DNA of 64,000 nucleotides from Geosiphon pyriformis uo1 (Eukaryota > Fungi > Glomeromycota), in the NCBI GenBank assembly GCA_016748015.1, contig JAAOMT010000128.1:1619538-1683537 (forward strand), given 5' to 3'. Both the position numbers and the translations under genes were made by a program. Below the pieces are notes generated by a model. That model was not told where the DNA came from, ran no database searches, and saw nothing but the letters and a program-made list of their open reading frames with translations. This document shows, piece by piece, positions 24,369-63,525 of this stretch (the stretch's first letter is position 1; every line of letters starts with the position of its first letter).

Positions 24369-27300
24369 GTGGCAAAATCAAAAATAGTAGTAACAAACTA
24401 TTTAAGATTTACTAAATCTTTATTTTAACAATATTAACAACAATTAAGATTAACCAACAACTATTTTCTAGTTAATCAGTTTTCAATTTTTACATTAATA
24501 AGAGAATTATATATTTTCTAGGAAAACAAGCAAATTCTGAATTAGCAAAAGGAAATTTTTACAATAAATTACTTTAATACACTAGTTTACTACTAAATTA
24601 CAATTTTGTTATAATTATTACTAAAATTAATTGTAAAATTAAAAAATATATTCAGCAAAAGTTTCCAATTATATTTACAAACAAAGACAAAACAAAATAC
24701 AAACACCAGCAAACACATCTAAAACAATATAACCACTTAATTAAAAAAAACTCAAAGTTGTTTTCTTAATACATTTATTATACTATTATATATTAAAAAG
24801 TACTATTAATATATTATCAGGATTCATATTATTATCTACAGTAAAATCAACTGTTACAAGAGTTCTATTTTAAAACAATTAAAAGAAATCTAAACTATTA
24901 AAAACCTACAGTAATTATTTTAAAAGATTTAAATTATAACTAACAATTTTATTAGAACTTTAATTATTGCCACTTCAACTTAATTTTAGATTTATTAGTA
25001 ATTAAACAGAAACCAAATCAAAAGAAAAAAAAACAATAATCAAAAAATTAATAATTAAAACCTAATTCCAAATAATTCAAAAGTCTAAATTCTGATTATT
25101 CAAACTCAGCAAAACCTAAAAAATTCAAATTTACTTCTTATTATTTAATAAAACTTATCTTTAGTTATCCAAATTAATTCACTACTAGTTGCACTAATTG
25201 CTGTCTTTTTACAATTATAATAACAACTACTAGTATTAATGACATATATATCAATTGCCAAATTAGAAAACTTCATCAGTAAAAAACAATAACATTCAAG
25301 CCTAATTGAATAATATAGTAAAAGCTATTACAGTCAATAAATAAAACAATATCAAAGCCTTTTAAGCAATTTTTTACTTTTTGTAAAATACCACAAACTC
25401 ATGATATTAAAGCCTAATAAACAAATCACAAGATTTTAACACATTTAAGATTATATTATTACAATATTTTAACAATTACAACAGCATCAACTGTCTGTTA
25501 ATTGGTTTTATTACTATTAAACAAGATGATACTAAAGCAGTTACTACTTACTTGAAATGTTTTTACAGAAATCTGTGCCAAATTTAAGCAATTAATGCTA
25601 ACTACTTTATAATATTACAAATTTTAAATTAATTTATTCATAAATTATACAGCAGTTTGTTATAATAAGTATATCTACTATACCTAAATATATTTCAAGA
25701 TGTAGTCATCTATGCCAAAAATTTCAAATTAGCTAAGCTTGAAGCTAATTATGTCCAAGCTGTAAATCTAGTAATAAATGAATTATTTGAATTAAATATC
25801 AAGTTGAAACAATTTGGCAAAACAATTAATCAGAAAATTGAGAAATACTTAATTAGCAATCAAACAATTTATCAATTTTTTCAATGTTGTGATCATCAAG
25901 AAGTCTTTAATTAATTTTAAAATTAGTTGTATTTATTATCATCAACTTCAGCAACTCAAAAATAATAGCAAAAACATGTATTTACCACTATTGTAATAAA
26001 TAAAAACATTTAAAAATAAACTATAGGACAAAATTAAATAATTAATAATTGAGAAATCAATATTAAAACCCTAATTACAGATTTTAAACTCCAAACTACA
26101 CCAACAATTCATTATTAGAACCATACTAATATTAACTATAATATGTACTAATAATACAACAGCCAATATATATACCTTCAATCTATTAAACTCTAATACT
26201 GGTAATTATTAAGTCTTATAGTTACCAGTTATTTATTAATTTTAATAAATTCAAATACTATTTCAAATTCTAATTCAATTATCAACTAAAAACCAAAGGC
26301 TAAAAGTTATGTATACTTAACAAAATTGGAGATTAACAATAGTTATGTACCAACTGCTATTTAGTTCTTCAAACCAGTCATTAAGATTATGTTAACAAAA
26401 TTTAGAAAATGAATATGCTCAAAATCCGAATTTTAGAACTATTTAAGTCTTCTGGTAATCTTAGAAATCACAATATTCAATTTGCTAAAAACCAATAACT
26501 AATTACTTATTAACAACATTTTATCAGCAACTATTATTAAAGACAAATTATTAGTTGCCATATTTTTCTTTAAGTTAAAAAACTTAATAGACATACTGCT
26601 ATTTAGTAAAATCATTCTTAATACTAAACCAATTACTGCTATATATACTAATATCAAAGTTAATGGTTATTTTATGAAACTCATTCTTAATAGTGGTTTA
26701 GCAGACAGTATTATTATTAGACAATTTATAAACCAATTAAATCATTAAGTTGATCATATTGCCAATACCAGAATTATTACTGTTAATAGAGTAACAAAAA
26801 TTTCTATTGGTAAAATTGTCAACTTTTTATTTGAAGTCAATAGTATTATCATGTCTATCAAAGTTTTAATAATAAAAGTTATATAATATCAAGCTTTTAT
26901 TAGTAATAATTGGCTGTTTAAAACCAATGCTGTATTTAACTGAAATACTCAAGAGTTCTAATTAACATTTGATGATTAGCATAATTAAGTATCTACTATT
27001 TGTAAATACTTTAAAGCTTTTTTAAGAAAGCAATTATTAATTGAGTTGGAAGAAAAAAAAATTACTTAGGAAGTTTACCAAGTTTTATGGGCCAAAAAAA
27101 ACACAATAAGTTATTACTAATACTTACTTGGAATAAAAAAAAAAAGAAAAAAAGGAAAACAAATCTTAAACCACCAACTTTATAAAAAAACCAGCAAATA
27201 ATTAGAGTATCTTATATTCAACATTAATATTAAAAAAACACTTATTCTATATTCTATTCAAGTAAATAAACTGTAAAAAAAAGCTTTCATCTATAAAAAC

Positions 27301-30300
27301 TTGTATATTATCCAAAAAAAATATGAAACATATATCTGTTACTATTGTAAAACATATTACTAGGAACAATTTGGATAACTAAAAAGACAAAACAAATAAA
27401 ACAATAAATTATGTCTCACTTGTAAAGAAACTCTACTTGATAAAAGAATATAGAATAACATTTCTAATTATAAAAGAATATGTAATACATTATATTAATA
27501 CACAATTTTCACTAATAATTAGAAAAGCAAAAAAACATTTTTCAATACTATATAGAATAGAGCTTTTTTATGTTTAGATGGTTATCTACATGATAAAAAT
27601 AAAATCTGGCAAATGGCAAGTGCTAAAATCAAAAATGTTTTACTTAATAAGATATTAGCAATCAAAAACAACCCACCAGAATCTATTAAAACCATTTTTA
27701 TTTCAAATTCAAACATCTTTGTTAACATTATAAATAATCCAAAACAATTCTATAAATATTATCAAAATCTAATATCTACTTAAAAAAAACAAGAGCAGTA
27801 TTTAAAACAATTAAATATTAGACTCTGTAAACATTGTTTAATTTCCAGTGATTTCAAATATTGTGACAATTGTGATTTTATTTACAATTTACTACTGCAC
27901 ATAATTTATTCAATCTCTAAAAAAAAAGAATTAATTAACAGTTATGCTTTAGAATTAGAATTGAAACTTAATTTCAATTAAACTTTAACAATAACAACAG
28001 TAATAATTCTTTCACAATAACAATAACAATAACAATAATTCAAATTTTAATAAAAACTTCAAATAATATATTATGCTTTTAGATCTTTTAATAGAACAAA
28101 AATTTAAATAATTTAATAATAATAACAAAAATATCATATCAGAATACATATATGATACTAATATAAAGTTTAATCTCAAATATTTTGAAAAAACTGCCAT
28201 CAAATTGAAATCTTATTTGTATATTAGCATAAATTTAAAATTAGCACTAAAAATTCTAGCAACAACAATAATACAATTAGCATCCAAATCTAGTTTAGTA
28301 AAAAAAAAGATTAATATTAAAGAAAAAATAATTAATACAGAATATATAAAAAATATTATTACAATACTACAAAATAAATCGAAAAAAGCATATATAATTA
28401 AACCAAATAAAAAAATAGCACAGGCAATATTTTTGCTTTTGGTAAAAATAACTTAATTAATATTAATAAAAATAAAATAAAAATTAGAAATAACAGCAAA
28501 AAAGATAAATAAATTTGGATTTATAAATAAAATAAAGATACCAGTTAATATAATAGAAAAAAAACAATTGGTTAGAAAGAAATTATCTTCATTTATTAAT
28601 CAATTTCTATTTTATTATATAACTAATATATATTAACTATTAAATAAAAAATAAAAAATCAACCTCAAATTTTTGAATAGACTATATTATTTGTAAATCA
28701 AGAAAAATTGCCATTATTAATCTCTATATACTAGCCAAAAACCATAAAAACATTAAAATTTTAATATATAATACAACTGAAAACCCAATAGAAATATCAA
28801 GTAAAACTATTATTAAATACTTAAAAACTAAAATTAAAGATTAATCACCAACAATCATTTCAAATTTTTCACAACTGTGTAGATATATGGACATTATATT
28901 ACAAACTATTTACAAACAAAAAGAATATTATTTGCTGCAACCAAATAATTAGAGCAAATAAATTTAAGAAACTTAGATCTATTCCAATATATACAAATTA
29001 AGCTATTACTTAACAATTTTACTGATATTTTTGTAAATAAAAATAAATTTGACAGAACTAACATTATTTAACACTAGGTTAAAACTAGAATACAATTTTA
29101 ATTAAACAAAAAGCATATTAAATACTACTTACTAACTATAAAATTATTTATTAAAAAATCAATCACATGTTAAACAATGGATTAATTCAACTATTAATAA
29201 GTTTATGATTATTATCAGTAGTATTTATCTAAAAAAAAATGGAAAGATTTGCTTTTATGTAATTATAAAAAACTTAACAGTATTACTTATAAAGACAGCT
29301 ATTTAACTCCACAAATTCAAAAATAGTTTTAACATTAAATTTAAATAGTGATTATTGACAAGTAGTCATAAATTCAGCCAACAAGAAAAAAACAGCATTC
29401 ACTATCAAAAAAAAACTTTGAATTTGATGTTATGCCTTTTGAATTAACCAATGCTCCAGTTACCTTTTGATAATTAATGAAAATTATTTATATTAAATTA
29501 TTATAGAAATCAATAATAATCTACTTAAATAACAAAAATGTGTTCTCCAAAATATTTAACAATTATTTTTACTATCTTTAGCAAGTATTTAAAAGATTAA
29601 AAAAAGCAAAATTAAAGTTAAATACTATTAAGTATTTTTTTGAAAAAACTAAACTCAAGTTTTTAGAACATGTCATAAGTAAAAACAGCATTAAAATAGA
29701 TTTAAATAAAATTAAGATAGTTAAAAACTTTTTAATATTAACCAACTTAATATAACTAAAAACATTCTTGGAATTTATTGGATATTATTACTATTTTATT
29801 TAAAACTTCTCCAAATTGGCTTAATTATTATATTAGTTTTAAGCAAAAAATATCAAGTATGAATAAATTAAAAAACAACAAAAAGCTTTTAATACATTAA
29901 GAAGAAAGTTCATTTAAGCTCTAATTTTAATCTACTTAAATCACAGCAAGTTATTTATTATTACTACTAATATATTAAGTCAAGTATTGAAAGCTGTATT
30001 ATCACAAAAAAAATTAAATAAATAAAAACATTCAATAGCATATGCCAGTCAAAATTTGAGTATAGCTAAAAAAAACTATAAAACTCTAACACTAGAATAT
30101 TTAGCTATTTTTTGGACTGTTATTAAATAAAAAGAATACTTAAGCCAAAAACTTAATATATATATTAACCACAAAAAATTGACATTAATTTAAAAGCAAA
30201 AATTTGGAAATAATTGTTATGCAAGATAGAAAATAAAACTATTATCATTTAATTATAAAGTACATTATAAAAATAAAAATACTAATAACTTATCATAAAT

Positions 30301-32413: not shown

Positions 32414-32426
32414 AAAAAAGAGATAA

Positions 32427-33192: not shown

Positions 33193-34052
33193 TGTTACTC
33201 ATAAAAATGAAAACAGATATAGAAAAATAGTAGGCCAATAAGAAAGTAGTAGTTAGCACGTGAGCACATTGTTCAGCAATATGAAGCAATATCAGAAATC
33301 ATAACACATCACTCAGCAATATGGAGCAATGTCAAGAAAATATGGCACATTGCTCAGCAATGTGAGCATTGTTTGAGAAATTATAGCACATTGCTCGAGA
33401 ATGTGAGTGATCTTGTAGAACCCAAATTATGTATATATAGTGGTAGCATTAGAAGTAAAAAAGACAGACCTTCTAGTTTAGATTTAATCTAAGCAATCTT
33501 TCCATTCACAAATATTAATAAATAATTATTCATTATCTTAATCCACTTTCCACTATTAACACTTCATGTTGATAGCAATTGATACTTAACTATACTGGAA
33601 CAATAGCTCTTGATCATGGCTATTAACGGAATACTAACTTGCAATTGCATTGGCTCATTTCTTCATTTTTTATTTTTTTTATTTTTTTTCTTTGATTTTA
33701 TTGTTGTGTACTAAATTAATTAAGAGAATTAAAGTGCTAAGTTACTAATGTCACAAATAATCTGGTAAAAAATCCAGAAATAAGAATAGAATTATATATA
33801 TTAACAGATAGCTTACCAAAAGGGCACAACTGCCAGATTAAACCAGCCATTACACTGAAGACAGAAATTGGGAAAACAACTTGAAGAAAACAACTTAAAC
33901 CAACCATAGTGAATCTCTGTCCATTATACAAAAAACTTGGCAACAAACCTTCAGATTCATTAAACTTTTAGATATTAACACCAGAATACCAAACCAGCAC
34001 TAAGTTATGGATTTGTTATTTGACTTAAGATCCCAAATAATCATCTGTAACA
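33193..34052 (+). repeat. 5' LTR of element B
   Basis: Direct repeat of 53321-54180; U3 tandem GCACATTGCTCAGCAAT units; TATATATA at ~33432. Confidence 0.95.
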
Positions 34053-34398: not shown

Positions 34399-35390
34399 TG
34401 TTACCAGACGAAATTAGAGATATCATTGAGCATGAAACTATCTTATAATTCTTATCATTAATTAGCATATATTATCATTTCAAATTATTACTTATTACAT
34501 TAGCAAAAATGTCCGAAATTATTATTTAATTAATAACCCAAATTGTACACAACACAAATATAACTTAATTGTGATGATCAATCATGCAATACCCCGAACT
34601 ATGTAACATTCAAAAGTTCACCAAAATTTATAGAAATTTGCCAAAATAATTGATAGTTTACTGAAATATCTAATAGTTCACAGAAATAACTTGTAGTTCG
34701 CTGAAATGTATCTTTAGTTCAGCGAAATTGTAGAAAATAGCAAAGTTCAAGTTCATAGAATAGTGTTATGACAAGTTGTATAAAAAAAAGAGCTTCTTTC
34801 TTCGAGAAAATGTATCTTACTTTAGATTTATCACTTAGAACCATTTCTACACACACAAAAAGAAATAAATATCAGATAATTCAAAAAACCAAATTCTTTA
34901 AATTATTGCACTTGGAAAATCCTCAAAAACACAACTAACAGTTTGAAATTGATTAGCTACCAATTTCAGTAAACTGTTAAAACACTTCCAGGCCTGGATC
35001 CAAAATGACTTTAACAAATCAATTTCTCATTTCTTCTTTTTCTTTCTTTTTCTTTTATTTTCTTTTCTTTTATCATCATAATTATTAGGGTAGTCTACAG
35101 ACAAAATTTCTGTAGAAAAGTTGACTTTCACAGCAAAGTAACTATACATTTTAGTGAGCTTCCAGACAAGCAATTCCTGGAAAAGAGTTGACGTTTACTA
35201 CAATGTAACTACATAAAGTAACTGGCATGAAATTGGCCATTCTACTCATAAACCCAGCAGCTCAAATTATAAGAGATAATTTGAGGATAAATTCAGTTAC
35301 TGGAGGTTCAACTACATTTAGAAAATGTGAATTCACAGCAAACAAGCATCGACAATATTTAAGAAAAGAGACCAAAAACCTCTGGTAACA
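34399..35390 (+). repeat. 5' LTR of element A
   Basis: TGTTACCAGA...TCTGGTAACA (10-bp inverted termini); direct repeat of 44261-45252. Confidence 0.95.
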
Positions 35391-35435: not shown

Positions 35436-38400
35436 GTGGCGACTGCCTCAGACATCACAACCTTAGAGTACTATCAATTGATTTACACACACTGCAAACA
35501 ACAATTTGAAATACGTGACAGAATCATAGCTTTCAAGAAAACACTTTTTCAATACATCGAAAATTGAATCAATGACTACCTCTTTGGAAACTATAACATT
35601 ACAACAGTTAAAAGAGATCTTTTTGAGAACATACTACACTATTCCAACACTGAATCAGAAAACATTAGTGCTGAAGCTTGCACTACTTATTTTGAAGAAC
35701 TTGATTATAATATCATTTGATTCTGTGAAGAAAAATATCCTGCAAACACACAATTTGTCTTTGAACTCAAATCTGAACCTAAAACCAGTAGCAACAAAAG
35801 ACAAAGAGATAACCGACCTGTTCACATAACACCCAATACTCCCAAAATATTATTTAAACATTTACAAACACCTGAACAAAGAACCAGTTCAAAACTTCCA
35901 CTTACTATCACACCTTTTCCAGCTTCACTTGCACAAGCACAAACACCTAATTCACCTTTAAATCGATTTGCAAGACCAGAAGATTTTACATTACTCAGAA
36001 GTCCCACCAGACAACAAGAACCCCTTCAAACTAGTTCCAATCTCCTTGATTTTCTAGCTGAAAATCAAAGTGAACACTCTAAGACAGCAGCAAATGAAGA
36101 AAACAACTCTGAAATAACTAAAGAAGAATCAATAGACAGTGAAAATGAAGAAGACGAAATGACAACATACATCGCAAAAATCCCTGAATTCAATGGAGAA
36201 GATATTGAGACCAGTCCTCAAGAATGGCTCGACCAAGTTACTAAAGCTAGAGATGCAAATAGATGGAATACTGCCAGAATGTTAAGAACAATTCCCTATT
36301 TTCTCAAAGAAACAGCAGGAGAATGGTTTGAAAACCTTGCCACTCCATTTAATGATTGGAACACTTTCAAAACAGCCTTCCTTGAACAGTTCACTGACAA
36401 TAACACCTCCATCATTCTTCGCAATTGTTTTCGAAATATCAAACAAGAACCCTCCGAATCTATTATGACTTATATTGGGAAATTCAACAAACTTCTCAGA
36501 CAAATTCGCCAACTCGAGACAAACAATTATTATTCCAATGCTCAAATCTTGGATCAATTTATCGCTGGTCTAAAAGATAAACTAATTAAAAAGGTTCGCC
36601 CACATGTGCCAGAAGATTTAAACTCTGCCATACAGCATGTGAAAAGATATGAAATGGCCATAAAAGAGGCCAACCGCACAAAACTTGTAAATTTGGCAAT
36701 TGGAGAAACCAGCTCAGCAGCTGAGAAAAAAATTGACCAACTCACAAAGAAGGTTAAAAACTATTTTACCAATCAACAACAACAGCAACCCCAAAGATAT
36801 CAACCACTCCAAAGACAAAATCAAAATAACTTTGCACTACTTTCCAATAACCAGCCTCAGAATTGCCATTACTGTGGAATTTCTGACCACTGAAAAAGAG
36901 ATTGCAGAAAGCTACAATGAGACCAACAAAATAGGAGTAATCAACATTACCCTCCACTACAGCAATCTTATTATTAACCGCCACCACCAGCTTACTATCT
37001 ATCAAGACCCCAATATCAAAATAACTATCATCAGCCTGTCCCACAGCCAATCCCACAGCAATACCAATAACTGCTCACACAACATTATCAAGTACCTGCT
37101 CGAAGACTGCTTACACAAAATCAATTCACACCACAAAACTGATACCAAGCAAACAACAATAGAATCAGTTCAAACAACCAATTGGTTCCCCAAAATACCA
37201 CTCAACCAAGATCCAACCACTACCATACTCAACCCAGTTATTTAACAATGCCAGAAGAACAGGATTTTTACCATACTGCACTTTTGGAAGGTAGAGCTGC
37301 AGCACAACAACAAAACCCTTCCTATATTTCCACCACAATTCCATCAGCCAGAATCGCTGAAAACGCTAATCTTTCAGATATATTCCTTTTTAAGTTCGAA
37401 GCAAATGAGTCACCATTTCTGCTTAGCAATGCAGCCACCAATGAACAAAAAGCAATCATGGCCATGTACACTGAAGCCGAAATCGAAGGAAAGACAATTC
37501 GCTTGATCCTAAACAGTGGATCCACCGGAAGCATTATCACCTACCAGTTAATGCAACAGTTAAAAAGAAATGTTGACCGACCAGCTCAAACAGTAATCGT
37601 CACTGCTGATGGCATGAAAAAGACCCCAGTAAGAGAAATTGACAATTTTCTGTTCACTCTTGATGGAATCACCATTCCAGTCAAAGTTCTTGTAATGGAC
37701 GCACCCCAATACCAAGCTCTTGTCGGAAATGATTGGCTTCAAAAAGCCAATGCTAATCTGAATTGGGAAACACAAGAGTTAACAATCTCCTACCAAGGAC
37801 AACACACCTGGGTACCTGCCATTTGTGGTACATTCAACAAATGCTCTGAAAAAGCCCCGGCTTTTGAATTTGAACTGGAAAAGGAAAAACCTTTCATTGA
37901 AACATTCATGGCTCTTGGATCAACGTCCAACTGGGCCGATGAAACAGAACAAGAACATTTTACTCTGCACTCTAAACCTGAAACCTCTGAATGGAATATA
38001 TCTTACTCAAAACCCGAACCAAGGAAACAACGCCCCTATATTCCTCTTAAATGTAAGAACTGCCACAAGAAACTATCGTCAATGGGAGCCTGCATTTCAC
38101 CTAAAAAAAAATATAAGAATCATACTTGTTATTACTGCAAGGCTTGCCACAGAAAATGATAGGGCCATCTAATAAAAAGGAGTGGAAAATAGGACAACAC
38201 CTCTTGTTTGACTTGTGGAGATATGCTACTGGAAGAATGCAATTGGATTGATGTAGCCATGAGAGGAGGAGTCTGCGATCAGACCTGCCAATATGCTTTA
38301 TCAATTTCAGAAAAAGTAAAAAGAAGAACACCCTTTAATGCAGCATACAACAGTGCTCTCAACAAACTTTATCACTATTCCCATGATGCCGAAATGATTT

Positions 38401-41045
38401 TTGACCTAGCAATAGCATTAATTAATAGAGCTACCAAAGAAGATGTTTGCCAAATAAAGAAAGCAGAATACATTGAATACACTATGGAATTAGCTGAATT
38501 TGATTACAAAGACAAAGTAGAAGTCTACCACCAAATTGCAAGTCACATTTACCCAACCCAAGAAGCTCAAATTCAACGATTAGAGCAAATGAACATTAGG
38601 CTATGTGAAAAATGTATTATGCTTTGTGATGAACAGTGGTGTCCTGAATGCTACGCTCTTAGCATTCCCTTGCCCAATGAAAATGATAAATATGAAATTG
38701 AATTCGGAGAACTTGAAGCAACAGAAGAAATTGAGACAACACCTATCTATCTCATTGAAAATCAATCTGCTTTACAACTCAAATATTTCAACAACAATGG
38801 ACAAGGAATAAAACCAGAAAAAGCCCACGAAATTGATGCTGGATATGATCTAAGATATCTAGGAAAAGATACTCTTACTCTCAAACCCAAATCTCTCACA
38901 AAAATCAACTTCAAAATTGCTCTCGAAATCTCACTAAGAGCAATGGTTCAAATTGCTTCTCGATCATCCTTGGCAAACAAAGGAATCAATGTTAGAGGAG
39001 GAATCATCGATGTGGAATACACAGGAGACATCACAGTCATGTTACAAAATGAAACTGATAAACCTTTCAAAATTGGATATGCTGAAAAAATTGCTCAAGC
39101 TATCTATCTACTCTTAATCAACATTTCGGGTTTACAATTAGTTAATCAAAGAGAACAGTTGGGAAAAAGTAAAAGAGGAACACAAGGTTTTGGTTCAACT
39201 GGACATTTCACAGTTCCAGTAAACATAGCTCTCAATGAACAAAAAGAATCTCACCAGATTTTACAACTTCCACAACCAATTACCATTTCACCCTTTAGAG
39301 AACACTCTGAAATTTACATTTGTGAAAAGCCAACAATCACACAACAAATTTTTGAATCAAATGAACAAATCTGATTAAAACATAAAATCTCGATCCCAAA
39401 CATTTATATTCCAGAAGGAACAAAGAAAGTCCGAGTTACTTTTTACAATCCCAACAATTATCCCATAGTTTTATTAAATAACTTAGAAATAGGAATCATT
39501 CATAGTAACATCTTTCAACAAGAATTACCCCAAACAGTTCCCGATTTTTCTGAAATTATTGGATATTCACTACCAAAAATCAATCCAAACCCCAGCTCCG
39601 AAAACTACCATGTTGTCATGGAAAAACTATCTCAAATCAACATGGGACAACATGAACCACAACAACAGACCCAGCTCAAAGAACTAATTGCAGAATTTGC
39701 TGATATCTTCACTGAAAACAACAATGACTTAGGAAGAACCGATTTGGTCCAACACCAAATTTATACAGGAGATGCCAAACCAAGAAGACAACAAGCATAT
39801 CGAGTTGCTCCAGAAAGCCACCAATTTATCCGAGAAGAAGTACAACAGATGCTTAACAATAGGCTTATTTAACCATCAATGAGTCCATAGACCTTACCAG
39901 TGGTCCTAGTTAAAAAAAAGAATGGAAAGATATGATTTTGTGTTGATTATTGACAATTCAACAGTGTCACCATTGGGGATGCTTACCTTCTTCCATGAAT
40001 TGATGACATGTTAGATGCCCTTGGAAAATCTAAATACTTTTCAACATTAGACCTAGAAAGCGAATACTGGCAAGTTGCCATGGATCCCAAGGACCGCCCC
40101 AAAACAGCATTTACAACACAAGGAGGAAACTATGAATTCAATGTAATGCCCTTTGGATTATGCAATGCACCAGCAACATTCCAAATACTCATGAATGTTG
40201 TATATGCTGAACTCCTTTGGAAATCAGTAGTTGTCTATCTTGATGACACTGATGTTTATTCCCCATCTTTCGGACTTCATTTAATTCACCTGTGAGAAGT
40301 TTTTCAACGATTATGTAGAGCAGAATTAAAACTAAACATTAAAAAATGCCATTTTGGAAAAACAAGTTTGGCCTTTCTTGGTCACATAGTTAGTGAAGAA
40401 GGAGTCAAACCAGATCCAGGAAAAATCAGTGCTGTTAAGAATTTCAAAGTTCTATGAAATACTACAGAACTAAAAGGATTCATAGGATTAGCATCCTACT
40501 ATTGGAAGTTTATCAAAGGATTCTTAGAAATTGCAAAACCCCTCAACCAGCTCACCACCAAAAACATGGAATACAAATGGACTACCAAACACCAAAAAGC
40601 TTTTGAAATTCTCAGGGAAAAACTGACAACAGCCCCAATCCTCGCCTACCCGGATTTCAGCAACCAATTTCGACTAGCTACAGATGCTTTATATACTGTC
40701 TTTGGTGCCATCTTATCACAACTAGATGATAATAGAAATGAGCAAGTAATTGCCTATGCTAGCAAAACATTAAAACCAGCTAAGAAAAACTACCCTGCCA
40801 CAGAACTAGAAACAGCAGCTGTAATTTGGGCTCTACACCACTTCAACCTTTATCTCAGGCCTAAAGAATTTGATATTATCACTGATAATATTGGACTCAA
40901 ATGGCTTCAGAACAAAAATACTCAGCTGAATGCAAAACAAACCCGATGGACAGGATTTCTAGCAAACTATTGATACATAGTACATCACAAACCAGGAAAA
41001 CTCCACATCAATGTTGACTGTCTCTCCAGAATAAGACAAGATTAG
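35436..41045 (+). pseudogene. Element A single-frame polyprotein: N-extension, Gag, zinc knuckle, aspartic protease, Cys-rich domain, dUTPase, RT, RNase H
   Basis: ORF fragments at 36159, 37182, 38208, 39618, 40008 and 40566 share one frame and are separated only by in-frame stops explicable as transitions. Motifs: CHYCGISDH*KRDC, LILNSGS (DSG decayed), AGYDL/RSSLA/GIIDVEYTG/IAQ/RGTQGFGSTG, MPFGLCNAPATFQ, YLDD, TDA...ELE...TDN...NVDCLSR. Confidence 0.93.
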
Positions 41046-41075: not shown

Positions 41076-42055
41076 TGTTACTGGAGGTTTTTGGTCTCTT
41101 TTCTTAAATGTTGGTAATGTTGATTTGCTGTGAATTCATGTTTTCAGGAAGTAGTTGAACCTCCAATAACTGAATTTATCTTCAAATTATCTCCTATAAT
41201 TTGAACTGCTGGGCTTATAAGTAGAATGGCCAATTCCTTGCCAGTTATTTTATGTAGTTACGTTGTAATAAATGTCAACTCTTTTCCAGGAATTGCTCAT
41301 CTGGAAGCTCACTAAAATGTATAGTTACTTTGCTGTGAAAGTCAACTCTTCTACAGAAATCTCGTCTGTAGGCTACCCTAATGATTGTAATAAGAAAAGA
41401 AAAAGAAAATAAAAGAAATGTAAAAGAAATAAAATTTTGTCAAGAGAAACATTTTCTATTCAGGCCTGGAGTCACTAACAGTTTACTGAAATTGGTAGCT
41501 AATTAATTTCGAAATGTTAGTTGGGTTTTGGGAATTTTCCAAGTACAATAATTAAAGAATTTGGTTTTTTGAATTATTTGATATTTATTTCTTTTTGTGT
41601 GTATAGAAATGGTTTTAAGAGATAAATCTAAAGTAAGATACATTTTCTCAAAGAGAAAAGCTCTTCTTTTATACAACTTGTCGTAACACTATTCTATAAA
41701 CTTGAACTTTACTATTTTCTACAATTTCACTGAACTAAAGATACATTTCGGTGAACTACAAGTTATTTCTGCAAACTATTAGATATTTCGGTGAACTATC
41801 AATTATTTCAGCGAATTTCTATAAATTTCGGCAAACTTTTGAATATTACATAGTTCAGAGTATTGCATGATTGATCATTGCAATTAGGTTACATTTGTGT
41901 TGTGTACAATTTGGGTTATTAATTAAATGATAATTTTGGACATTCTTTGCTAATGTAATAAGTGATAATTTGAAATGATAATATATGCTAATTAATGATA
42001 GGAATTATGAGATAATTTCATGCTAAAATGATATCTCTAATTTTGTCTGGTAACA
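41076..42055 (-). mobile_element. Inverted solo LTR of an A-related subfamily
   Basis: 980 bp, reverse complement of LTR-A with a divergent central tract (~41410-41480); perfect TSD CCAA (41072-41075 / 42056-42059). Confidence 0.95.
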
Positions 42056-42078
42056 CCAACCAAAAGAGCCAACAAACA

Positions 42079-43464
42079 ATGAATTCAGAAAACTATAGCA
42101 ATCTTAAACAATATTTGGAAACATTAACAATCCCAACAGATTGGTCTTCAGATAAAAAACATTAACTACAACAACAAGCCAAACAATATTTTCTACACAA
42201 CAACATTATTTATCATCGAAATTTCAAAAACCCAGACAAACCACTCAGACTAATACAAGAACAGAAAAAAGAGACCATATTATACAACATGCACTCAAAT
42301 TCTTCATCAGCACACTTTGGAAAAGATAGCACCACTTAAAGAACACTAGAATACTACTTTTGGTCTCGAATAAGAAAAGACATTCACGAATATGTCAAAT
42401 CTTGTGATAGTTGTCAAAGAAGAGGAGAAACACACTCTACTGAATCATTAAATCCAATTAAAGTTGGACAACCCTTTGACCGAGTTGGTATCGATTTAGT
42501 TGGATCATTATCTATTACCACTCAAGGAAACCATTATATTGCAGTAGCTGTAGACTATCTTATTAAATGGCCCAAAGCCAGAGCCATTCAATGAACAGAT
42601 GCGAAATCAGTAGTAAATTTCATCTATAAAGACATCATTTGTAGACACGGATGTTCAATTGAACTTTTATCCAACCAGGGAACACACTTTGTGAACAACC
42701 TAATACAAGAAATTTGTAAACAATTCAATGTCAAAAAACCTCTGTCTTCGCTCTACCATCCACAAACAAATGAACTTGTGGAATGTTTTAACAGAACATT
42801 GTGTGAGTCATTAGCCAAAGTCTCAACCGATTTTGAGCAAGAATGGGATATCTTTATTCCATCAGTGTTACTAGCATATAGAACACTAAAACAAGATACC
42901 ACAAAACACACACCATTTGATTTAACTTACGAAAAGACAGCAACACTACCAATTAAGTTCACAGTGGAAACATACTCAGCACAACCAATCAATAAAGACA
43001 ATTTCCAGAAAACACTTCAACGAAGAGCCTACACTCTGCTTAGCATGTTGGAAGAAAAATGACGAATAGCAGCCACCTATATTGAACACTCCCAAGCTCG
43101 ACAAAAAGAACGGCATAATAACAAATTGCCTCCAGTCACTAATAAATTTAAAATTGGAAACAAAGTTCTCTTACACAGAACTAAAGCTGAAAAACAATGG
43201 AGTGGGAAATTTGAAAATAAATAGGATAAACCATTCTTTATCCATGAAGTCCTAGGCAATGAATCATATAAACTAAGACTTGATGACAAAATCCTAGCAA
43301 AAGTTGCACATGGAAATCGTTTGAAACACTATTATTCCAGAAACAATCCTGAACCATTAATTCCACAAATTGGTATACATTCCCCTTTAGTCAATCCCGA
43401 AGATATTCCCCAAAACTTAGAACCAATAGTTGTCATTAAACAACCTTTCAACCTGAACATTTAA
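42079..43464 (+). pseudogene. Element A integrase, stand-alone ORF
   Basis: Own ATG at 42079 (MNSENY). HHCC finger (MHS...AHFG...CDSCQ), core VGIDLVG / LLSNQGTHF / NELVECFNRTL, GPF-type module (W...PFFIHEVLGNESYKL...HGNRLKHY). No chromodomain. Confidence 0.9.
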
Positions 43465-43572
43465 TTTAATTTTACTAGTTATTCCTTTATAATTTAGAAA
43501 TAATTAAAACAAAAAATAATATAAAAACCCATACACCAAAAATAATTTTCTTTTATTTTCAAATCTCTTATA

Positions 43573-44260: not shown

Positions 44261-45252
44261 TGTTACCAGATGAAATTAGAGATATCATTAAGCATGAAAC
44301 TATTTTATAATTCCTATTATTAATTAGCATATATTATCGTTTTAAATTATCACTTATTACATTAGCAAAAATGTCCAAAATTATCATTTAATTAATAACC
44401 CAAATTATACACAACACAAATGTAACCTAATTGTGATGATCAATCATGCAATACCCTGAACTATGTAACATTCAAAAGTTTGCCGAAATTTATAGAAATT
44501 CGCTGAAATAATTGATAATTCACCAAAATATCTAATAGTTCATAGAAATAACTTGTAGTTTGCCGAAATGTATTTTTAGTTCAGCAAAATTGTAGAAAAT
44601 AGCAAAGTTTAAGTTTATAGAATAGTGTTATAACAAGTTGTATAAAAAGAAGAGCTTCTCTCTTCGAGAAAATGTATCTTACTTTAGATTTATCACTTAG
44701 AACCATTCCTACGCACACAAAAAGAAATAAATATCAGATAATTCGAAAAACCAAATTCTTTAAATTATTGCACTTGGAAAATCCTCAAAAACACAATTAA
44801 CAGTTTGAAATTGATTAGCTACCAATTTCAGTAGACTGTTAAAACACTTCCAGGCCTAGATCCAAAACGACTTTAACAAATCAATTCCTTATTTTTTCTT
44901 TTTCTTTCTTTTTCTTTTATTTTCTTTTCTTTTATCATCATAATCATTAGGGTAGCCTACAGATGAGATTTCTGTAGAAGAGTTGACTTTCACAGCAAAG
45001 TAACTATACATTTTAGTGAGCTTCCAGACAAGCAATTCCTGGGAAAGAGTTGACGTTTACTACAACGTAACTACATAAAGTAACTGGCACAGAATTGGCC
45101 ATTCCACTCATAAGCCCAGCAGCTCAAATTATAGGAGATAATTTGAGGATAAATTCAGTTACTGGAGGTTCAACCACATCCAGAAAATGTGAATTCACAG
45201 CAAACAAGCATCAACAACATTTAAGAAAAGAGACTAAAAACCTCCGGTAACA
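44261..45252 (+). repeat. 3' LTR of element A
   Basis: Follows the PPT; direct repeat of 34399-35390. Confidence 0.95.
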
Positions 45253-48200
45253 ACGCACAACAACAATTCTCTATTACCTACACAGACAAAAACAAAGGAA
45301 GGTTGTAAACACCAGCAGTAATACCAAAACAAATACAACCACCCACTTGAAAGAAAACCAGAGTTGAATCACCAGCAAACCCATTATATTACTATACATT
45401 CGGAAGCACCATTAACATCACATCAACAAACGTGTCCACATTAACTATGATATCAACATTTGGATGATTCCCATTCCAGAGTAAACAAAGAAAAGAAGAT
45501 CTTCTAGAACTATACAGTATGTATTTTGAAGGATTTAAGTTACAATTACCAATGCCATCAGGACTTTGATCTCCACCACTCCAACCCAATTTTGGAACCA
45601 TAAGTCCTTGAAAAATAATGGAATTGGAAAAAGAACAAGAAGAAGAGAAAGAAAAATTTGAAGATCAAGAATTTACTTACCAAAACTCGATCCCAAAAAA
45701 CCTGGAAATTGAAACTCCGAACCTACAAACTCAGCAAAATCTAAACTTGAAAAATCCAGAAATCGGAACTCTGAATATTCAAACACTGCCAAATCAAGAC
45801 AATTCAAACCCTGAGTTAATTAATTAGCAAAACTTATCTTCAATAATTGTCATTGATCAGCCACCAGCTGAACTGATCCAACTGCAACAAATACCACCAC
45901 TTCAACAACTCTAACAGCCACTTCAACAGCCACAATAACAACTTCAACAACCAAACTTGGATCTAATGGCCTATGTTCTAATAGCAAAACTTGAGAAATT
46001 CACCGGCAAAGAAAATAATGCCCAAATATGGCTTAACAATATTGAAAAAGCTATCGCAACCAACAGATGAAATGACCAGAGAGCACTCCAAGCCATCTTT
46101 TATTTCTTACAAGATACTGTTGACTTGTGATATCAAAGCTTAGTCACCAAATCCTAAACATTCCAGGAATTTAAAATCGCATTCTTGGGATACTTCAGTA
46201 ATAATAATAGCATTAACTGATTGGCAAACACTTTTACCACCATTAAGCAAGAAGAAAATAAAGCAGTCACTACTTATTTAGGATGCTTCCACAGAAATCT
46301 GTGCCAAATCCAGGCCATACAGACTGATTATTTCACAGCACCACAAATTTTGAATTAATTTATTAGAGGCCTGCACAGCAGCATTCTTCAACACATATGC
46401 CTAATGCATCCAGTAGACTTTCAAGCTGCAGTTACAAATGCCAGAGATTTTGAAGCAGCCAAACTCGAAGCCAACCATGCCCAAGCCATAAATCTAGTGA
46501 TGAACGAATCATCTGACTTAGATTCCAAACTAAAGCAATTAAGTAACTCACTCAATCAGAAATTAAAAAAGTACTTAGCTAACAACAATCAAGTCATTTA
46601 TCAACCTTCCCAACAATGCAACAATCAGGGAAATGGAAATTGATTCCAAAATCAGTCACATTTAACATCTTCCATAACTAATCAACAGTGACAACAAGAA
46701 ACACATGCTTGCCACTATTGTGGTAAACAAGGCCACTTGCAAATTGATTGCCGCCAACATTTAAATAACCAATGATTAGGAAATCAATATTGAAATTCTG
46801 ATCACCGAATTCAAATTCCGAATCATCAATCAAATCCAGCTCTATATCAACCAAATTATCTACTGATAACACAGTCATTGTATCAAATCCCAATGATGCA
46901 GCAATTATACTCACCTTCAGTCTATTAGTCTCCAGCATCAATTTATCAACTGTAGTCTTAACTCATTTATTAGCCACAGTTTCAGGTAATTTATCAGCCC
47001 CAACAAAATCAAACACTGTCCTAGTACTTATCTTAAAATGGAACCCAAAAGCCAAGACTGATACAACAAAGCTGGAGATTATTAATAGTAGTCTATCAAC
47101 TGATCCCCAGTTCCTCAAACCAGCCATCAGGATCTTGACAATGGAATTTGGGCACTGAGTACACCCAAAATCCGAATTCTCAACCATATTTAAAGTCTAC
47201 TGGTTATTCCAGAAGATGTCTAACCCAATAATCTGGAAACCAATCAACAACCAACACTTACTAGCAATATTCTACCAGCTACCATTACCAAAAACGAATC
47301 ACTGGATGCTATTTTTCTATTCAAACTTGAGGAACTGTTAATCACACCATTGTTTAGTGGAGCTGCCCTTAAGGAAAAACCTATTATGGCCATGTATACT
47401 GATGCCAAAGTTGATGGCCACCCCATTAAACTAATCCTAGACAGTGAATCAGCTGGCAACATTATTACAAGACAACTCATGGACCAATTAGGTTACCAAG
47501 TTGATCAAGCTGCCAGTGCCAAAATCATAACAGCTGATGGAACAACCAAAACTCCAATTAGCAAGATTGACAATCTATCTATTAAAATCAATGGCATCAT
47601 AGTACCCATCAAAGTCCTAGTAATAGAAGCAACACAGTACCAAGCACAAGTTGGAAATGACTAGTTAGTCAAAACCAACACCATGCTAAACTGGAACACA
47701 CAGGAGCTTCAACTTAGCCAGAATAGTCAACATACCTGCATACCAGCCATGTGTGATCATTTCAAGACTACCAAAATGCCAACACCACTTATCAAGTTCA
47801 AGAAAGAAGAAAAGAAACTTACTTAGGAAACATACCAAGTGTTATGGGCTGAAGAAAACCACAACGAGTTACCACTAATATCCTCTTGGGATGACAACAG
47901 AAAAAGAAAACAGAAAGAAGAACTTACCTGGAATCCCAACCAAGTCTGGGAAATTGACAACAACCAGAAAAAGATAATAAATTGGGAGTGAGAAAAAAAT
48001 ACAAAAGGAAAGAGAAAGAGAAAAGAAGAAGAACCAATATTACCCACCACCACCACCACCACTACTTATAATCAATATACCTATACTGCACCACAATGAT
48101 TCACCTATTATTGGCCAAAACTTATATGTGTTGATTGCAGTAAGAAATTGTCATCAATAGATGCATGCTGTAGCAACAATGAGGAATACTCAACAGTAAC

Positions 48201-51200
48201 CAAATTTTATTGCCATGCATGTGTTATAGAATGCTTTGGACAACCAAAATGGAAAGAAAAATGAGACAACAAACCTTGTTTAGCTTGTGGAGAAACATTA
48301 CTTGACAAAGGAATGTGAAATGACATTCCTGGTTGAGGAGGAACATGTGACACTTCATGCCAGTACACGATTCTTATTAGTAACTGGATTAGGAAAGGAA
48401 CACCAATAGAAGCCACATGGAAAAAAACCATACAGTAATTGGACAATTGTTCACACAATGATGATGAGATATAGAGAATGGCAATCACCAAAATCAAAAG
48501 AGCATCACCAAAAGAAATAAAAACAATTAAAAATAACCCACTTGAATCCATAGAACTTGACTGAAACCCAGAACCAGTTATAAATCTACTAGATCCGGAA
48601 CAATTCCATAAACACTATCAGGAATTAGCACTTACTAGAGAAGAACAAGAGCAATGGTTGGAAGAAATCAACACTCGACTATGTGATCATTGTTTAATTC
48701 CCTATAACTTTCAATATTGTAATAAGTGTGACCTCATTTACAATCCACCAATCCACATGATCTACACAATTCCAAAGAAAGAAGAACCAATCAGCAGCTG
48801 CACATCAGAATCAGAATCAAATTTCAATCTTGATTCAAACTCCGACAATGACAATGATGAAAACAACAGTTTCAGTTCTACTCTAAATAGCAATAAAAAT
48901 TATGATGATTCAAACTCTGATTCAAATCCCGAAATATTTATTACACTTTCTGACCTCACCAAGGAACAGGAACTTAAATGGTTCAGCAATAGTGGTGAAG
49001 ATATCATGCCAGAACATATACATAATACGGATGCAAGGTTTGATCTAAGATATCCAGAAAAAAATCCCATTAAATTGGAACCACATTCGTGCACCTATAT
49101 TGATCTTAAAATAGCACTGGAAATTCTAGTGACTACTATGGTTCAATTAGCATCTAGAAGTAGTTTAGCAAAAAAAGGAATCAATATCAGAAAAAGAATA
49201 ATTAATGCAGGGTATATAGGAAATATTATTGCTATGCTACAAAATGATTCAGAAAAGACCTATAACATAGAACCACAGGCAATATTCTTATCTTTGGTGA
49301 AAATAGCTCAGTTAGTGTTAGTAAGAAGCAGAAAAGAATTAAGAATAATAGCAAGAGAGATACAGGGATTCAAATTAATGGGTAAAATAGATGTATCAGT
49401 TAATATAACAGAGAAAGAGATTATTGACAAAGGAGAAATTATCTCAACCCATCAATCAATTTCTATTCCACCATATGGCCAGTATATATTAGCCATAAAA
49501 AGAGAAGTAAAGAATCAAGCTCAGTTGTTTGAAGCAAAAGCTACCATTTGTGAATCAGAAGAGATTGAACTCATTAATCTTTACATATCAGCCAAAAGCC
49601 CCAAAAACATCAAAATTCCCATCTACAACATAATGGGAAATATCATTGAGATACCAAAGGAAATCATCATTGGATATTTAACCACTGAAGTTGAGGATCA
49701 ACCACCAGACTATATTCCAGATTTTCTACAGCTTTGTGGATATATGGACATCACATCACAAACCATCTATGGGTGAAGTGAATGTTATCTGCTCTAACCA
49801 AAACAATTGGAACAGATAAACATGAGAAATCTAGACCCACTTCAACAGATGCAACTAAGAATATTACTTAGCAATTTTAATGACATCTTTGCTAGCAAAA
49901 ATGAATTTGGCTGCACCAATATTATCCAACATCAGATTAAGACTGAAGATGCAATGCCAATTAAGCAAAGAGCGTACAGAGTACCACCAGCTAGTCATGA
50001 GATTATTCATTAAGAAATCAATTAGATACTTAACAATGGGCTAATTCAGCCATCAATAAGTCCATGGTTATCACCAGTAGTACTAGTCTGAAAAAAAAAG
50101 AGAAAATTCACTTTTGTGTGGATTACCAGAAACTAAATAGAGTTACCAAAAAAGACAGCTATCCAACTCCAAAGATCCAAGAACTATTTGACGCTTTTGG
50201 AGGAAATAAATGGTTCTCAATACTAAATTTAGATAGTAGTTACTGACAAGTAGCCATGGATTCAGCCAACAAAGAGAAAACAGCATTTACCACAAGAAAG
50301 AGAAATTTTGAGTTTGAAGTCATGCTATTTGGCTTAATGAATGCCCCAGCAACATTTCAATGGCTCATGGAAATTGTTTATACTAGATTACTGTGGAAAT
50401 CAGTAGTTGTTTATTTAGATAACACAAATGTGTTCTCAAAAACATTCGATGATTATCTGCACCATTTCCAACAAGTATTTGAAAGACTCAGACGAGCAGG
50501 ATTGAAACTAAATGCCAACAAATGCTTCTTTGGAAAAACAGAACTAAAATTCTTAGGACATGTTGTGAGTAAAGATGACATCAAAACAGATCCAGACAAG
50601 ATTGAAGCTGTCAAGAACTTTCCAGTACCAAACAATCTCACAGAGCTAAGAGCATTCTTGGGATTTGCAGGGTACTATTGCCACTTTATCAAAGACTTTT
50701 CTAAACTGGTCCAGCCACTCCATCATTTACAAACTAAGAATGTGAAGTATGAATAGACAGAAGCTCAACAAAAAGCATTTGACACACTAAGAAAAAAGCT
50801 TATTCAAGCTTTAGTGTTAATGTATCCAGATCACAACAAACTATTCATCATCACCACTAATGCATCAGACCAAACATTGAGAGCAGTACTATCACAAAAA
50901 AGACCAGATGAAAGAGAACATCCAGTAGCTTATGCCAGTAGAAGCTTAAGTCCAGCTGAAAAAAACTATGGAACATCAGCATTAGAACACTTAGCAATCT
51001 ATTAGGCAGTCATAAAATGGAAAAAATGCTTGAGCCAAAAGTTTAAAATATACATGAATCACAAAGGATTGACTTCAATCCAGAAGCAAGAATTTGGAGA
51101 TGACCACCATGCCAGATGGAAAATAAAACTTTCACCATTTAATTATACAGTACATTATAAAAAAGGAAAAAACAATAGAAATACCAACAGTTTGTTACAA

Positions 51201-57200: not shown

Positions 57201-60200
57201 TGGTATTTTTATTATGTATTGTCAATATAATAGGATTAAAATAACAGTGGTTATATTGATAAGTTTTATTTTGTTACTGGTTTTTTTTTATATAATTAAT
57301 TTATATATATTTTTTTTTATTAAATTCAAATTTTTGGATTTTTTTAGCAATAAGACTTAGTTTTTTTCGCATAATTACTAAGATCAGTTGTAAAATTTTT
57401 ACAAAAAGTAAAAAAATTGTTTAAGCAATTTTTTTTGTGATTTAATTATATAGAGCTTGTTAGAATTGTTTTAAAGCATTATAATAATATTTTTAATATA
57501 TTCAATATTAATTATTTCTTCTTTGACATTAATTTTTTTATTTGTAAAGCTAAAATAAGATATAATTTATATTATTATGCTAATAAAAATTTTTAAAGCT
57601 AATTTAAAATCTATTTTTATAAAAGAATAGACAACTATAATTATAAAGAATTATTCAAAGTATCTTAAATTAAATTTTATATTATTTGCATGTACTCTTT
57701 CAGAAAATATTTTTTTATTATTATTATTGTATTATTTTAATTTTAACTTTTTAAAAAAATTGAGATAAATAAAGTATTGTTTAATTTTAATAATCATATT
57801 TAGTTCTTAAAATATAATGTTTTTTGTATTTAATAAGTATTTTTCTTTGGGTTTTTCAAGTTCAGAAATAAAATAAAGTACTTATAAAAATAAATTAAAC
57901 AAAAACTTATATTTATTATAATATTAAAAATGACAAAAAATTAAACAGTGATTATATAATTTGGTGTTAAGATTAGCCAATTTTTGTTTTTGTTTTTTTT
58001 AAGTAGAAACAAGTTCTTAATAATATTTTTAAAACATTTTAAGATTATTAATAAACAGGTTATCTATCTTTTTAACTATTATTAAGATATTTTTAATAAT
58101 ATATATCTCTTTAATAATAACTTTTTTTATTTTATTGTAGCTATTTTCTAAATTTTGTTTTTATTATAAAGATATAAATCTAATTGCTTAATTATAGGTA
58201 ACAACAAATAGAGTTCTTTTTTAAGTCTAATTGGTAATTAAAATTGTGTATTAATATAATTTATTACATGTTTTTTCTCTATCAAGAATATTGTTTTATA
58301 GTTTTTTATTTAATAGAATCTTATTATAGATAAAACATAATATATTATTCTATTTAGTTTTGTTATATTAAGTGTTCAAATTATTTTAATATATAAGAAC
58401 AACAATAATATCTGAGAATAGTCAATTATATTTTATTATCTTTAATATATGTACTTATTGATAATAATTTTTTTTACAATCTATACAAATTAATTTTAGA
58501 AGATAATATAGTTAATTATATTGGTTTTATAAAACATAAGCAAAGATTAAAGCTTGTAATATTTTTTTGGCTTTTTTTTATATAAGAAGTAAGAGTAATT
58601 TTGTTTTAAATTCATTAATTCAAGAAATTTGGTATGTTTTTAAGATTAGTTAAATTATAAACTTTTTAAATTTGATAAAAGATAGTTTAAATATTGTTAA
58701 TTTAAAATGTCTACAAGTGACAGATATTCGAATATATTGATTATTAAATAAAATTTAAAGCTCTTGAATATTCTAATTAAGAATAATATAAGTCTTAGTT
58801 AATTAATTATTATTAATTAAAGTTTGGTATTAAGTTACTTTTATTACAAAAACTTTGATTAAAATTATGATTCCATTTAATTTAAAAAAAAATTGTTAAT
58901 TTTTCTTATTTGTATTTTGATATTTTTATTAACTATAATAATTTTAACTATAGTTATATAATTAATTTACAATCTAATTAATTCACAAACTGTTTTATGA
59001 TTATATTACCAGTTAAGTTGTTATTAAATATTAGTTTAATATTTATTTGTTCTATTGTGATATTAGTATATATTGTTATAATTGGTTTGTTTTAATTGAT
59101 AACAGCTTTACTAAAAAAATTAAAAGTATTTATGTTGTTAATTTTGAATAAAAATATGACTACAAACATTTTATTTTTATTGATTATAACTGGAAAAATT
59201 ATATTAAAAAAGACTTAGTTATTGTTAATACAAAAAAAATTGGTAATTTTAATTGTAGTTTTTTTTTTTAAAAAATACAATATTATTAAAATTCTGGGTT
59301 TCAATAAAATTAAGATATAATACTTGGTTTAGATATTCAATTGGTGGTGTTTATAATAATAAGTTGTTGTAATTTATGTTTCAAATTAGTATTATTGGGT
59401 TTTAAAATTGGTTTTTGAGATTATTTCTTTATTTTTGGCTATAATTAATAGTTTTAAGTTTTAAATTAATGTTTTAAGAGATTTAATATTGAGATTAAAG
59501 TAGTATTATTGTTTGAAAAAATTGGTAATAGTTTAGTAATAACTACAATATATATTGAAATTGCTAATATTAAAAAATAGAATAATAATATTCTAATAAT
59601 TGTAAATATTTTAATTATTATTAATATTAATTTTTATGATTTTAGTATGTTATTTTTTTGCAACAATTTTTTATAATATAACTAAATTTCTAATAATAAT
59701 AATTATAGAAATCTTGTATCCAAAGTTATTGTTGTTGTTAATATTATTGTTGTTATTAGTATTTTGTATTATTGTTATTTTCTTAATATTATAAAAACTA
59801 ATATATTTTTAAATTTTTTACAAAGAATTTTTCAATTTTTTAAAGTAATTCTTACTTAATTAAGTAAGTTTTATGTCAATATTAGAAGTTTTATTTATGG
59901 CCAAATTAACAGCTTGGGTGTAATTTGCTTTTTGTTTAGCAGATTTAAAGTTATAAACAAACATTATTGTATTTTGTAAACTTTTAAAATAGTAAGATCT
60001 AATAAACCAAAAAATATTGCTTTTAAATTTTTTTATAAATTGGTTTAAAATTTGGTTAAATGTATAATAATTTTTTTTAATGATAAAAAATTTGATTAAA
60101 TTAATTAAGATAAGTAATAACTGCTTTATAATTTTTTTGTTTTATAATATTAAATTGATTTTATAGTTGAATTATGATATTAAAATCACAAAAATACTAT

Positions 60201-62270: not shown

Positions 62271-63525
62271 ATATTTATTATAATAGCAATAAAAAATATC
62301 TAATAACAACCAAGTATTATTGTTGTTCATGTATTTTAAAATAATTTAACTACTCAAAAAGACAAAAAAAATGAGATAACAAATTATGTTTAATCTGTAA
62401 AAAAACTTTTTCTAACAAAAAAATATAAAAAAATAGTTTAAAAAAAGAAAAAACATGTAATAAATCATATTAATACATAATTTTTATACATAAATGAATA
62501 AAAAAATGCTATTAAAAGCTATATATAATCATGTTTTTATTTGTTTAAATAGTTGTTTATATAACAAAAATAAAATCTAAAGAATAGTAATTACTAAATA
62601 TAATAGTATCATTAAAAAAAAATACATGTAATTAAAAACATGCATAAAAAAAATTATTTTTTGTAATATTTAACAATCTAACAAAATTAAATAAGTATTA
62701 CCAATTACTAATATTTACTTAAAAAAAACAAAAACAAGATTTAATACAGGGAACTAATAGTCTTACTTGTCAAGAAAAACTTATTAATCTTAATATTTAA
62801 TTATGTAAATACTATTTTATTTTATATTAATTCAAATATTGTAATAAATATAATCTTATTTATAATTCACTATCACATATTATCTATTTTATTTTAAAGC
62901 TTAACAAACCAATTACCAAAGCCAATAAATTAGAATTAGAGTTTAATTTTAATTCAAATATTACTTTTAAATTTAACATAAATTTTAATATTGTTTCTAA
63001 AACTAAATAATATATTGTCTTTAATTTAATAAAAATAGAAGAATTAAAATAGTTTAGCAAAGATAATAAAGATATTATGTCTAAAAAAGCACATAAAACA
63101 AATATTAAATTTAATTTTAAATATTTAAAACAAGTTTTTATAGTTTTAAAACTTTACTTACTTATTAATATAGATTTAAAATTAGCATTAAAAGTTTTGA
63201 CAACTATTATAGTTTAATTTGCATTCAGATCTAGCTTAATTAAAAAATAAATTACTGTAAAAAAAGAAATAGTTAATACCAAATATATAAGAAATATTGT
63301 TATTATGCTACAAAATAAAGCTAAAAAAATAGCACAAAATATATATTTGTCTTTAATTAAAATATTTAAATTAGTATTAATAAGAATGAAAAAAAATCAA
63401 AAATAACTGCTAAAGAAATTAAAAGATTTAAATCAATAAAAAAATCAATATATTTGTTAACATAACAAAAAAAATTATAGATCAAAGAAAAATTATTTTT
63501 ACAAGTTATATTGTTTTTATTCTGT

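Follow-up and report, generated by a model that had tools for sequence, protein, structure and literature searches.

The window analysed here, a stretch of 64,000 nucleotides of the glomeromycotan fungus Geosiphon pyriformis uo1 (GCA_016748015.1, contig JAAOMT010000128.1, positions 1,619,538 to 1,683,537 of the forward strand), carries two retrotransposons bounded by long terminal repeats (LTRs), one of which (element A) is nested within the other (element B). In element A, gag, protease, reverse transcriptase (RT), RNase H and integrase follow one another between two LTRs, which is the order of Ty3/Gypsy elements, and TG...CA termini, a primer-binding site, a purine tract and a short target duplication are likewise those of this group. 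The duplication measures 4 bp and is exact for element B and for a nested solo LTR, with one mismatch for A. The element also encodes a trimeric dUTPase, recognized by a PF00692 match above cut-off and a C-terminal RGxxGFGSTG motif. Between the protease and the dUTPase of this dead element sits a Cys-rich domain of about 208 amino acids (aa), in the frame shared by Gag, protease, dUTPase, RT and RNase H. The domain is real and conserved, and it apparently represents an undescribed domain family on a known kind of element. Each of the five copies in the window that bear a dUTPase shows the order protease-domain-dUTPase, with the domain just upstream of the dUTPase.

The domain was first noticed in an earlier note, made without database searches, which named six Cys motifs each for copies A and B. 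Those of copy A (CKNC at 38052, CKAC, CLTC, CDQTC, CEKC and CPEC, ending at 38651) are all present in a single frame, those of copy B are all found as well, and the remnants reported in copies C, D and E are borne out. The claim of an in-frame domain stands in that the frame is shared, but this frame is not open, since premature stops interrupt the domain three times in copy A and six times in copy B. Two motifs described as shared hold less well: KKLSSMG reads KKLSSID in copy B, and a stop codon takes the place of the Trp of WD-x-x-x-C in A as well as in B, although 63 of 69 A-type and 33 of 36 B1-type relatives have the Trp. With six CxxC per 201 aa, the CxxC density of copy A is beyond chance (P = 0.006 for at least five in shuffles of the same residues; two of 2538 six-frame windows hold five CxxC and none holds more). 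The observation of a multi-CxxC domain is confirmed, and its interpretation as zinc-binding modules that might contact nucleic acid or chromatin is partly supported; a helical core and flanking cleavage-like motifs had been missed.

Searches with the domain of copy A gave 251 matches among 322 candidates (best identity 89%) and those with copy B 154 among 172; the 120 matches listed for each search are all hypothetical proteins of G. pyriformis. A profile search of 1.84 billion proteins returned 467 matches at E ≤0.001, and the results that follow from it rest on the best 150 of these, which include 128 new identifiers. Ten of the more divergent ones were looked up; nine belong to Geosiphon and the tenth is P0275 (ENA), a stop-free polyprotein of 1064 aa with the arrangement protease-domain-dUTPase-RT. 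A search from the P0275 domain among long proteins retrieved only P0275 itself and one Geosiphon model (two of 123 candidates). The order protease-domain-dUTPase is also that of P0275, and across 371 proteins no other was seen, except for one duplicated model and one model without dUTPase. The known range of the family is narrow, as judged from the matches listed; the other 118 new identifiers and the 317 lower-ranked matches could hold other organisms. Several hundred G. pyriformis models annotated as hypothetical proteins can be explained as fragments of this single transposon domain, and P0275, being free of stops, opens structure and function to direct testing.

Conservation was compared on the 215 of the 371 proteins with at least 130 aligned residues, which represent six lineages, 30-52% identical pairwise. 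Twelve Cys are fixed, in the spacings CxxC-24-CxxC, CxxC-19-CxxxC and CxxC-8-CxxC: residues 8, 11, 36, 39, 59, 62, 82 and 86 (numbered on the A translation) are modal in all six lineages, and residues 192, 195, 204 and 207 in all five with data. The earlier note had made its case depend on a Cys spacing common to the subfamilies, and this spacing is kept. The remaining Cys and His vary across lineages, H167 excepted, and the KKL that follows the first pair, KW54, W72, Y88, TP100-101, K143 and Q180/L184/N188 are likewise fixed. The zinc sites are not repeats of one another (hhalign probability 0.9-3.3%).

Nucleotide identity between A and B at the first, second and third codon positions is 0.54/0.66/0.36 in the domain, compared with 0.66/0.84/0.40 in the protease and 0.68/0.73/0.40 in the dUTPase, a pattern that shows purifying selection on the domain, weaker than on its two neighbors. 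Third codon positions are saturated between lineages. In all three parts, protease, domain and dUTPase, copy A and P0275 resemble each other more than either resembles B, and the linkers flanking the domain are poorly conserved and variable in sequence and length, as expected of a self-contained domain inherited vertically with Pol. Contigs of sequencing run X1 cover the domain as they do protease and dUTPase, and none of the joints listed bypasses the domain as a whole, although these contigs are short and the observation is weak. In run X2, from the same sample, two low-depth contigs are less than 90% identical to the protease region (window 37442-37768) and come from a more distant relative of the element.

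Two AlphaFold2 models were obtained, with a mean predicted local distance difference test (pLDDT) of 65.5 and 69.3 and a predicted template modelling score (pTM) of 0.38 and 0.42. They agree in a first finger of knuckle, hairpin and helix (in the second model, its Cys pairs have a pLDDT of 84-89), in a less certain second finger that leads into a three-helix bundle modelled with confidence (about 90), and then in three more helices and a third site of low confidence. The first two sites adopt zinc-knuckle geometry in the models, and a gap of 19 aa separates the two predicted fingers. This modelling suggests a protein built from two treble-clef-like fingers, a three-helix bundle and an acidic helical half. 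The zinc modules proposed in the earlier note are well supported as three predicted C4 sites, given twelve Cys that are modal in every lineage with data and the knuckle geometry of sites 1 and 2. Because the twelve Cys are fixed, the domain likely binds three zinc ions per chain. The coordinates of these parts and of the surrounding element are collected in Table 1.

Table 1. Features of element A, its Cys-rich domain and related copies in the window
Feature	Position	Strand	Remarks
5' LTR, element A	34399..35390	+	followed by primer-binding-site-like TGGTGCTC
Gag capsid (PF03732), element A	36291..36575	+	same frame as Pol
Aspartic protease (PF13650), element A	37473..37736	+	catalytic Asp is Asn in copy A
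Cleavage-like hydrophobic motif after protease	37902..37916	+	putative N-end of released protein
Basic arm before first Cys	38010..38051	+	possible nuclear localization signal
Cys-rich accessory domain, copy A (~208 aa)	38046..38669	+	stops at 38157-38162 and 38190-38192
Zinc site 1, CxxC-x24-CxxC	38052..38147	+	predicted knuckle, hairpin and helix, treble-clef-like
Zinc site 2, CxxC-x19-CxxxC	38205..38288	+	last Cys starts a helix
Three-helix bundle	38280..38423	+	model pLDDT ~90
Acidic helical half	38424..38603	+	pLDDT 56-81
Zinc site 3, CxxC-x8-CxxC	38604..38651	+	low model confidence
Cleavage-like motif before dUTPase	38745..38759	+	putative C-end of released protein
dUTPase (PF00692), element A	38814..39203	+	E 1.3e-21
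Reverse transcriptase and RNase H, element A	39909..40970	+	
Integrase (H2C2, rve, weak Tf2-type SH3), element A	42061..43461	+	
3' LTR, element A	44261..45252	+	93.4% identical to 5' LTR; 65 transitions, 0 transversions
Domain in element B	48127..48729	+	6 stops; 35% identical to copy A
Element B LTRs	33193-34052 and 53321-54180		element A nested within B
Decayed domain copy C	27248..27888	+	frameshifted
Decayed domain copy D	57894..58376	-	
Decayed domain copy E	62276..62866	+	

The description of the domain as unrecognized holds for the libraries searched (Pfam, NCBIfam, PHROGs, PDB and fold libraries). Pfam gave no significant match in 50 scanned members or in P0275, and neither PHROGs nor NCBIfam matched the domain significantly. 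Among PDB sequences none was significant, and the best rows (HapE, E 0.53; Ap4A hydrolase, E 0.17) are taken as chance. Foldseek found no significant match in PDB or BFVD; LIM, GATA, ZZ and RING chains recur among its non-significant rows, which is in keeping with treble-clef fingers and is not proof of them. The best Z scores of VIA wide (6.0 and 5.2) are background for helical bundles, and its lists barely cover residues 1-48, while the best ESM Atlas scores (0.82 and 0.86) are leads only. Phages and plasmids yielded no tblastn match at E 1, and exact peptide patterns gave no confirmed hit in IMG/VR or the JGI metagenomes. These blank searches do not show the fold to be new.

Motif scans covered 88 copies, with the usual ligand patterns for PHD and LIM. 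Neither the C4HC3 pattern of PHD fingers nor that of LIM domains (CxxC...HxxC-xx-CxxC) occurs in any copy, and LIM has no Pfam match either; for PHD there is one PF13771 hit below threshold, in P0302 only (E 0.0019, 18.8 bits against a cut-off of 29.1). A standard histone reader is therefore not supported. The CCHC knuckle of Gag proteins appears in a single copy, and the badnavirus Cys box (CX2CX11CX2CX4CX2C, with x9-13 allowed) and the pattern CxH-x10-14-CxxC in none. The domain was accordingly rejected as a PHD finger, a LIM domain, a Gag knuckle or a badnavirus-type Cys box. Site 3 (CxxC-x8-WCxxC) may resemble Cys repeats in glomeromycotan kinases, a likeness on which a literature search found nothing.

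Further features surround the domain in element A. A conserved, beta-rich segment of about 120 aa lies between dUTPase and RT (39230-39600, + strand); it has no Pfam match, its A-B identity is 0.60 at the second codon position and 0.36-0.37 at the others, and we take it to be a possible degenerate second dUTPase-like fold. An extra reading frame of about 230 codons (43561-44250, + strand), also without a Pfam match, separates integrase and 3' LTR and is 80-91% identical to pieces of four database proteins; element B holds a frame at the corresponding place (about 52670-53320) that looks unrelated. Two solo LTRs of the A family lie at 41076-42055 (- strand) and 14568-15564 (+ strand), the first within element A, between RNase H and integrase, and flanked by a CCAA duplication. 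The tracts 18000-34000 and 54000-64000 are very AT-rich (14-22% GC) and consist of strongly decayed copies that belong to the same Gypsy family. A host gene with BAR, PH and ArfGAP domains (2779-6026, + strand) encodes an ACAP/centaurin-type protein, and 20 N at 10519-10538 mark an assembly gap.

All five copies in the window are broken, dead and mutated at cytosines. The observed/expected ratio of CpG is 0.14-0.32 in the elements, compared with 0.84 in the host gene region (2000-6100), and almost all differences within the LTR pairs are transitions (65 against 0 transversions in A, 83 against 2 in B). These figures suggest a strong cytosine-mutation process acting on repeats, either resembling repeat-induced point mutation (RIP) or driven by methylation. 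The transitions in the LTR pairs of A and B fall in CpG, CpA and other contexts. RIP has been reported as not detected in the fungal group concerned, and CG methylation has been shown for Rhizophagus transposons (10.1101/2021.03.30.436303).

A hydrophobic motif of the form [TSQVI][YFN][VILMH][ATI][LFIMEY] recurs at the domain borders. It has four matches in A, which are exactly the four borders before and after protease and dUTPase, and four of its five matches in P0275 are at borders. Since such cleavage-like motifs stand on both sides, the domain is likely released as a protein of about 31 kDa and not fused to the dUTPase. As Gag and Pol share one frame in A, it would be made alongside Gag. 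The putative P0275 product (263 aa, ~31 kDa, net -18) is polarized, with a front half of pI 8.3 (net +3) and a back half of net -21; the intact domain copy itself is net acidic (-15), unlike nucleocapsid, its N-terminal half being mildly basic. At least four K/R in a stretch of eight residues ahead of the first Cys were found in 53 of 72 proteins, compared with 719 of 5000 random stretches (14%), the proteins being kin and not independent. This basic arm suggests nuclear import.

The domain is tentatively read, with a probability of about one in three, as a free, nucleus-bound accessory adaptor that works through protein contacts. The element's own protease would cut it out at the flanking hydrophobic motifs, and the basic arm would import the released protein into the nucleus. 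There, the half formed by fingers and bundle might use its conserved Trp/Tyr surface to hold on to a chromatin or defence protein of the host, with the acidic half recruiting another partner, and the outcome could be easier expression or integration in a genome where repeats are mutated at their cytosines. Several points weigh against this adaptor. The models are middling, with pLDDT below 60 at zinc sites 2 and 3. The border motif is found at only two of the four borders in B, it was defined after seeing the sites, which makes the P value of 0.0015 circular, and a likeness to the sites cut by retrotransposon proteases is presumed. Clusters of basic residues are a common feature, and no position-by-position alignment underlies the arm. 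For the domain, neither a binding partner nor a fold match nor a functional motif came to light, and its link to host silencing is circumstantial.

A further objection is that other retroelements repeatedly have zinc modules beside their dUTPases (PMC1802613, PMC5408684), which favors a rather unlikely alternative, namely that the domain is fused to or docked on the trimeric dUTPase and tethers it to genomic RNA or the reverse-transcription complex, so that newly made cDNA contains less uracil (the roles of retroviral dUTPases are reviewed in PMC4531489). Its constant position directly upstream of the dUTPase fits this arrangement, for which the betaretroviral NC-dUTPase (PMC1802613) and the rotifer Juno elements, with an extra zinc knuckle after the dUTPase (PMC5408684), provide precedents. 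Against it stand the net acidity of the domain and an acidic linker of 35-80 aa, and a cleavage-like motif separates the domain from the dUTPase in A, B and P0275. The CCHC knuckle in a basic domain that marks NC-dUTPase is not a feature of this family, its pattern occurring in one copy of 88, and element A carries its own Gag knuckle.

Alternatively, the basic arm, the two fingers and the three-helix bundle might bind the element's own LTR while the acidic half activates transcription or displaces methylation, by analogy with VANC acting for VANDAL transposons (PMC6719617). The division into a basic front and an acidic back half, the CpG depletion of the elements, LIM and GATA fingers among the weak, non-significant Foldseek rows and winged-helix domains among the VIA rows (Z 3.8-4.7) would all suit such a trans-activator or anti-silencer. 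It is nevertheless unlikely: the front half carries only +3 with few invariant basic residues (K13, K14, K53, K143), the fold rows lie at background level, and known anti-silencers are separate genes and not pieces of a polyprotein. Bolder still, and speculative to the point of being quite unlikely, is the proposal that a released three-zinc nuclear protein of new fold counters cytosine-methylation silencing or trans-activates its own LTR, as a retrotransposon counterpart of retroviral accessory proteins, and may have caused the LTR burst of the Geosiphon lineage.

A structural role confined to the particle or the pre-integration complex, as scaffold or chaperone of RT and integrase or as an integration-targeting tether, seems clearly improbable, too. 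The single frame with Gag and all enzymes makes packaging likely, and the integrase of copy A has no chromodomain match (H2C2, rve and a weak SH3 only), so that it lacks the mark of a chromovirus and targeting is left open. Yet Gypsy elements in general work without such a domain, and known integration-targeting modules sit at the integrase C-terminus. An enzyme, such as a zinc-dependent deaminase suggested by the PCxxC of site 2 (typically PCLxC), is very improbable: HxE upstream of PCxxC occurs in only five of the 88 copies, with a His that is not kept across lineages, the model places a knuckle and not a helix start at PCxxC, Pfam and PDB gave no deaminase match, and this candidate was rejected. 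That the domain is a functionless passenger or decayed insertion, as the five broken copies might suggest, is hardly credible and largely refuted by its conservation, with twelve Cys fixed at 30-52% identity, saturated third codon positions and an intact copy in P0275.

LTR retrotransposons rarely acquire a domain stably, and such a gain tends to be a sign of conflict between host and element (PMC9289625), few transposon-encoded anti-silencing factors are known (PMC6719617), and a striking LTR expansion is described for Geosiphonaceae (PMC11952901). A domain kept across lineages despite saturated third codon positions in such a fungal family is of interest for these reasons. It was not found described in the literature searched, which did not extend to Repbase, GyDB, Dfam, the Geosiphon genome paper or supplements, where an earlier annotation is possible.

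Comparison with known systems shows partial likenesses only. Treble-clef fingers (LIM, GATA, TRASH/FCS, ZZ) share the knuckle-hairpin-helix pattern of the model, and the CxxC-x19-CxxxC of site 2 has what we take to be the TRASH/FCS spacing; the domain differs in having no Pfam match, no His ligand, Foldseek E >2 and a finger gap of 19 aa. The badnavirus second Cys motif is likewise an extra all-Cys motif in the polyprotein of a reverse-transcribing element, but it is located in the coat protein (PMC4926197) and its spacing is absent from the 88 domain copies. VANC is also a transposon-encoded accessory protein in a repeat-silencing genome, an analogy only, as it is encoded by a gene of its own in a plant DNA transposon (PMC6719617). 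In the NC-dUTPase of M-PMV and MMTV a zinc-binding module directly precedes a trimeric dUTPase as it does here; NC, however, is a small basic CCHC protein from Gag that resists cleavage (PMC1802613), whereas the present domain is a 210-aa acidic C4 domain that follows the protease and is set off from the dUTPase by a cleavage-like motif. In Juno of bdelloid rotifers the dUTPase likewise lies between protease and RT and is accompanied by an additional zinc module, but this is a single knuckle after the dUTPase instead of a three-site domain before it (PMC5408684). The dUTPase placement itself is that of fungal Ty3/Gypsy elements such as PosPlaTy3-5 of Postia placenta and elements of Phanerochaete and Tuber (PMC2864245). 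The accessible part of that survey mentions no Cys-rich domain in them and treats them as chromodomain elements, in contrast to element A, which shares with them the position of the dUTPase in Pol.

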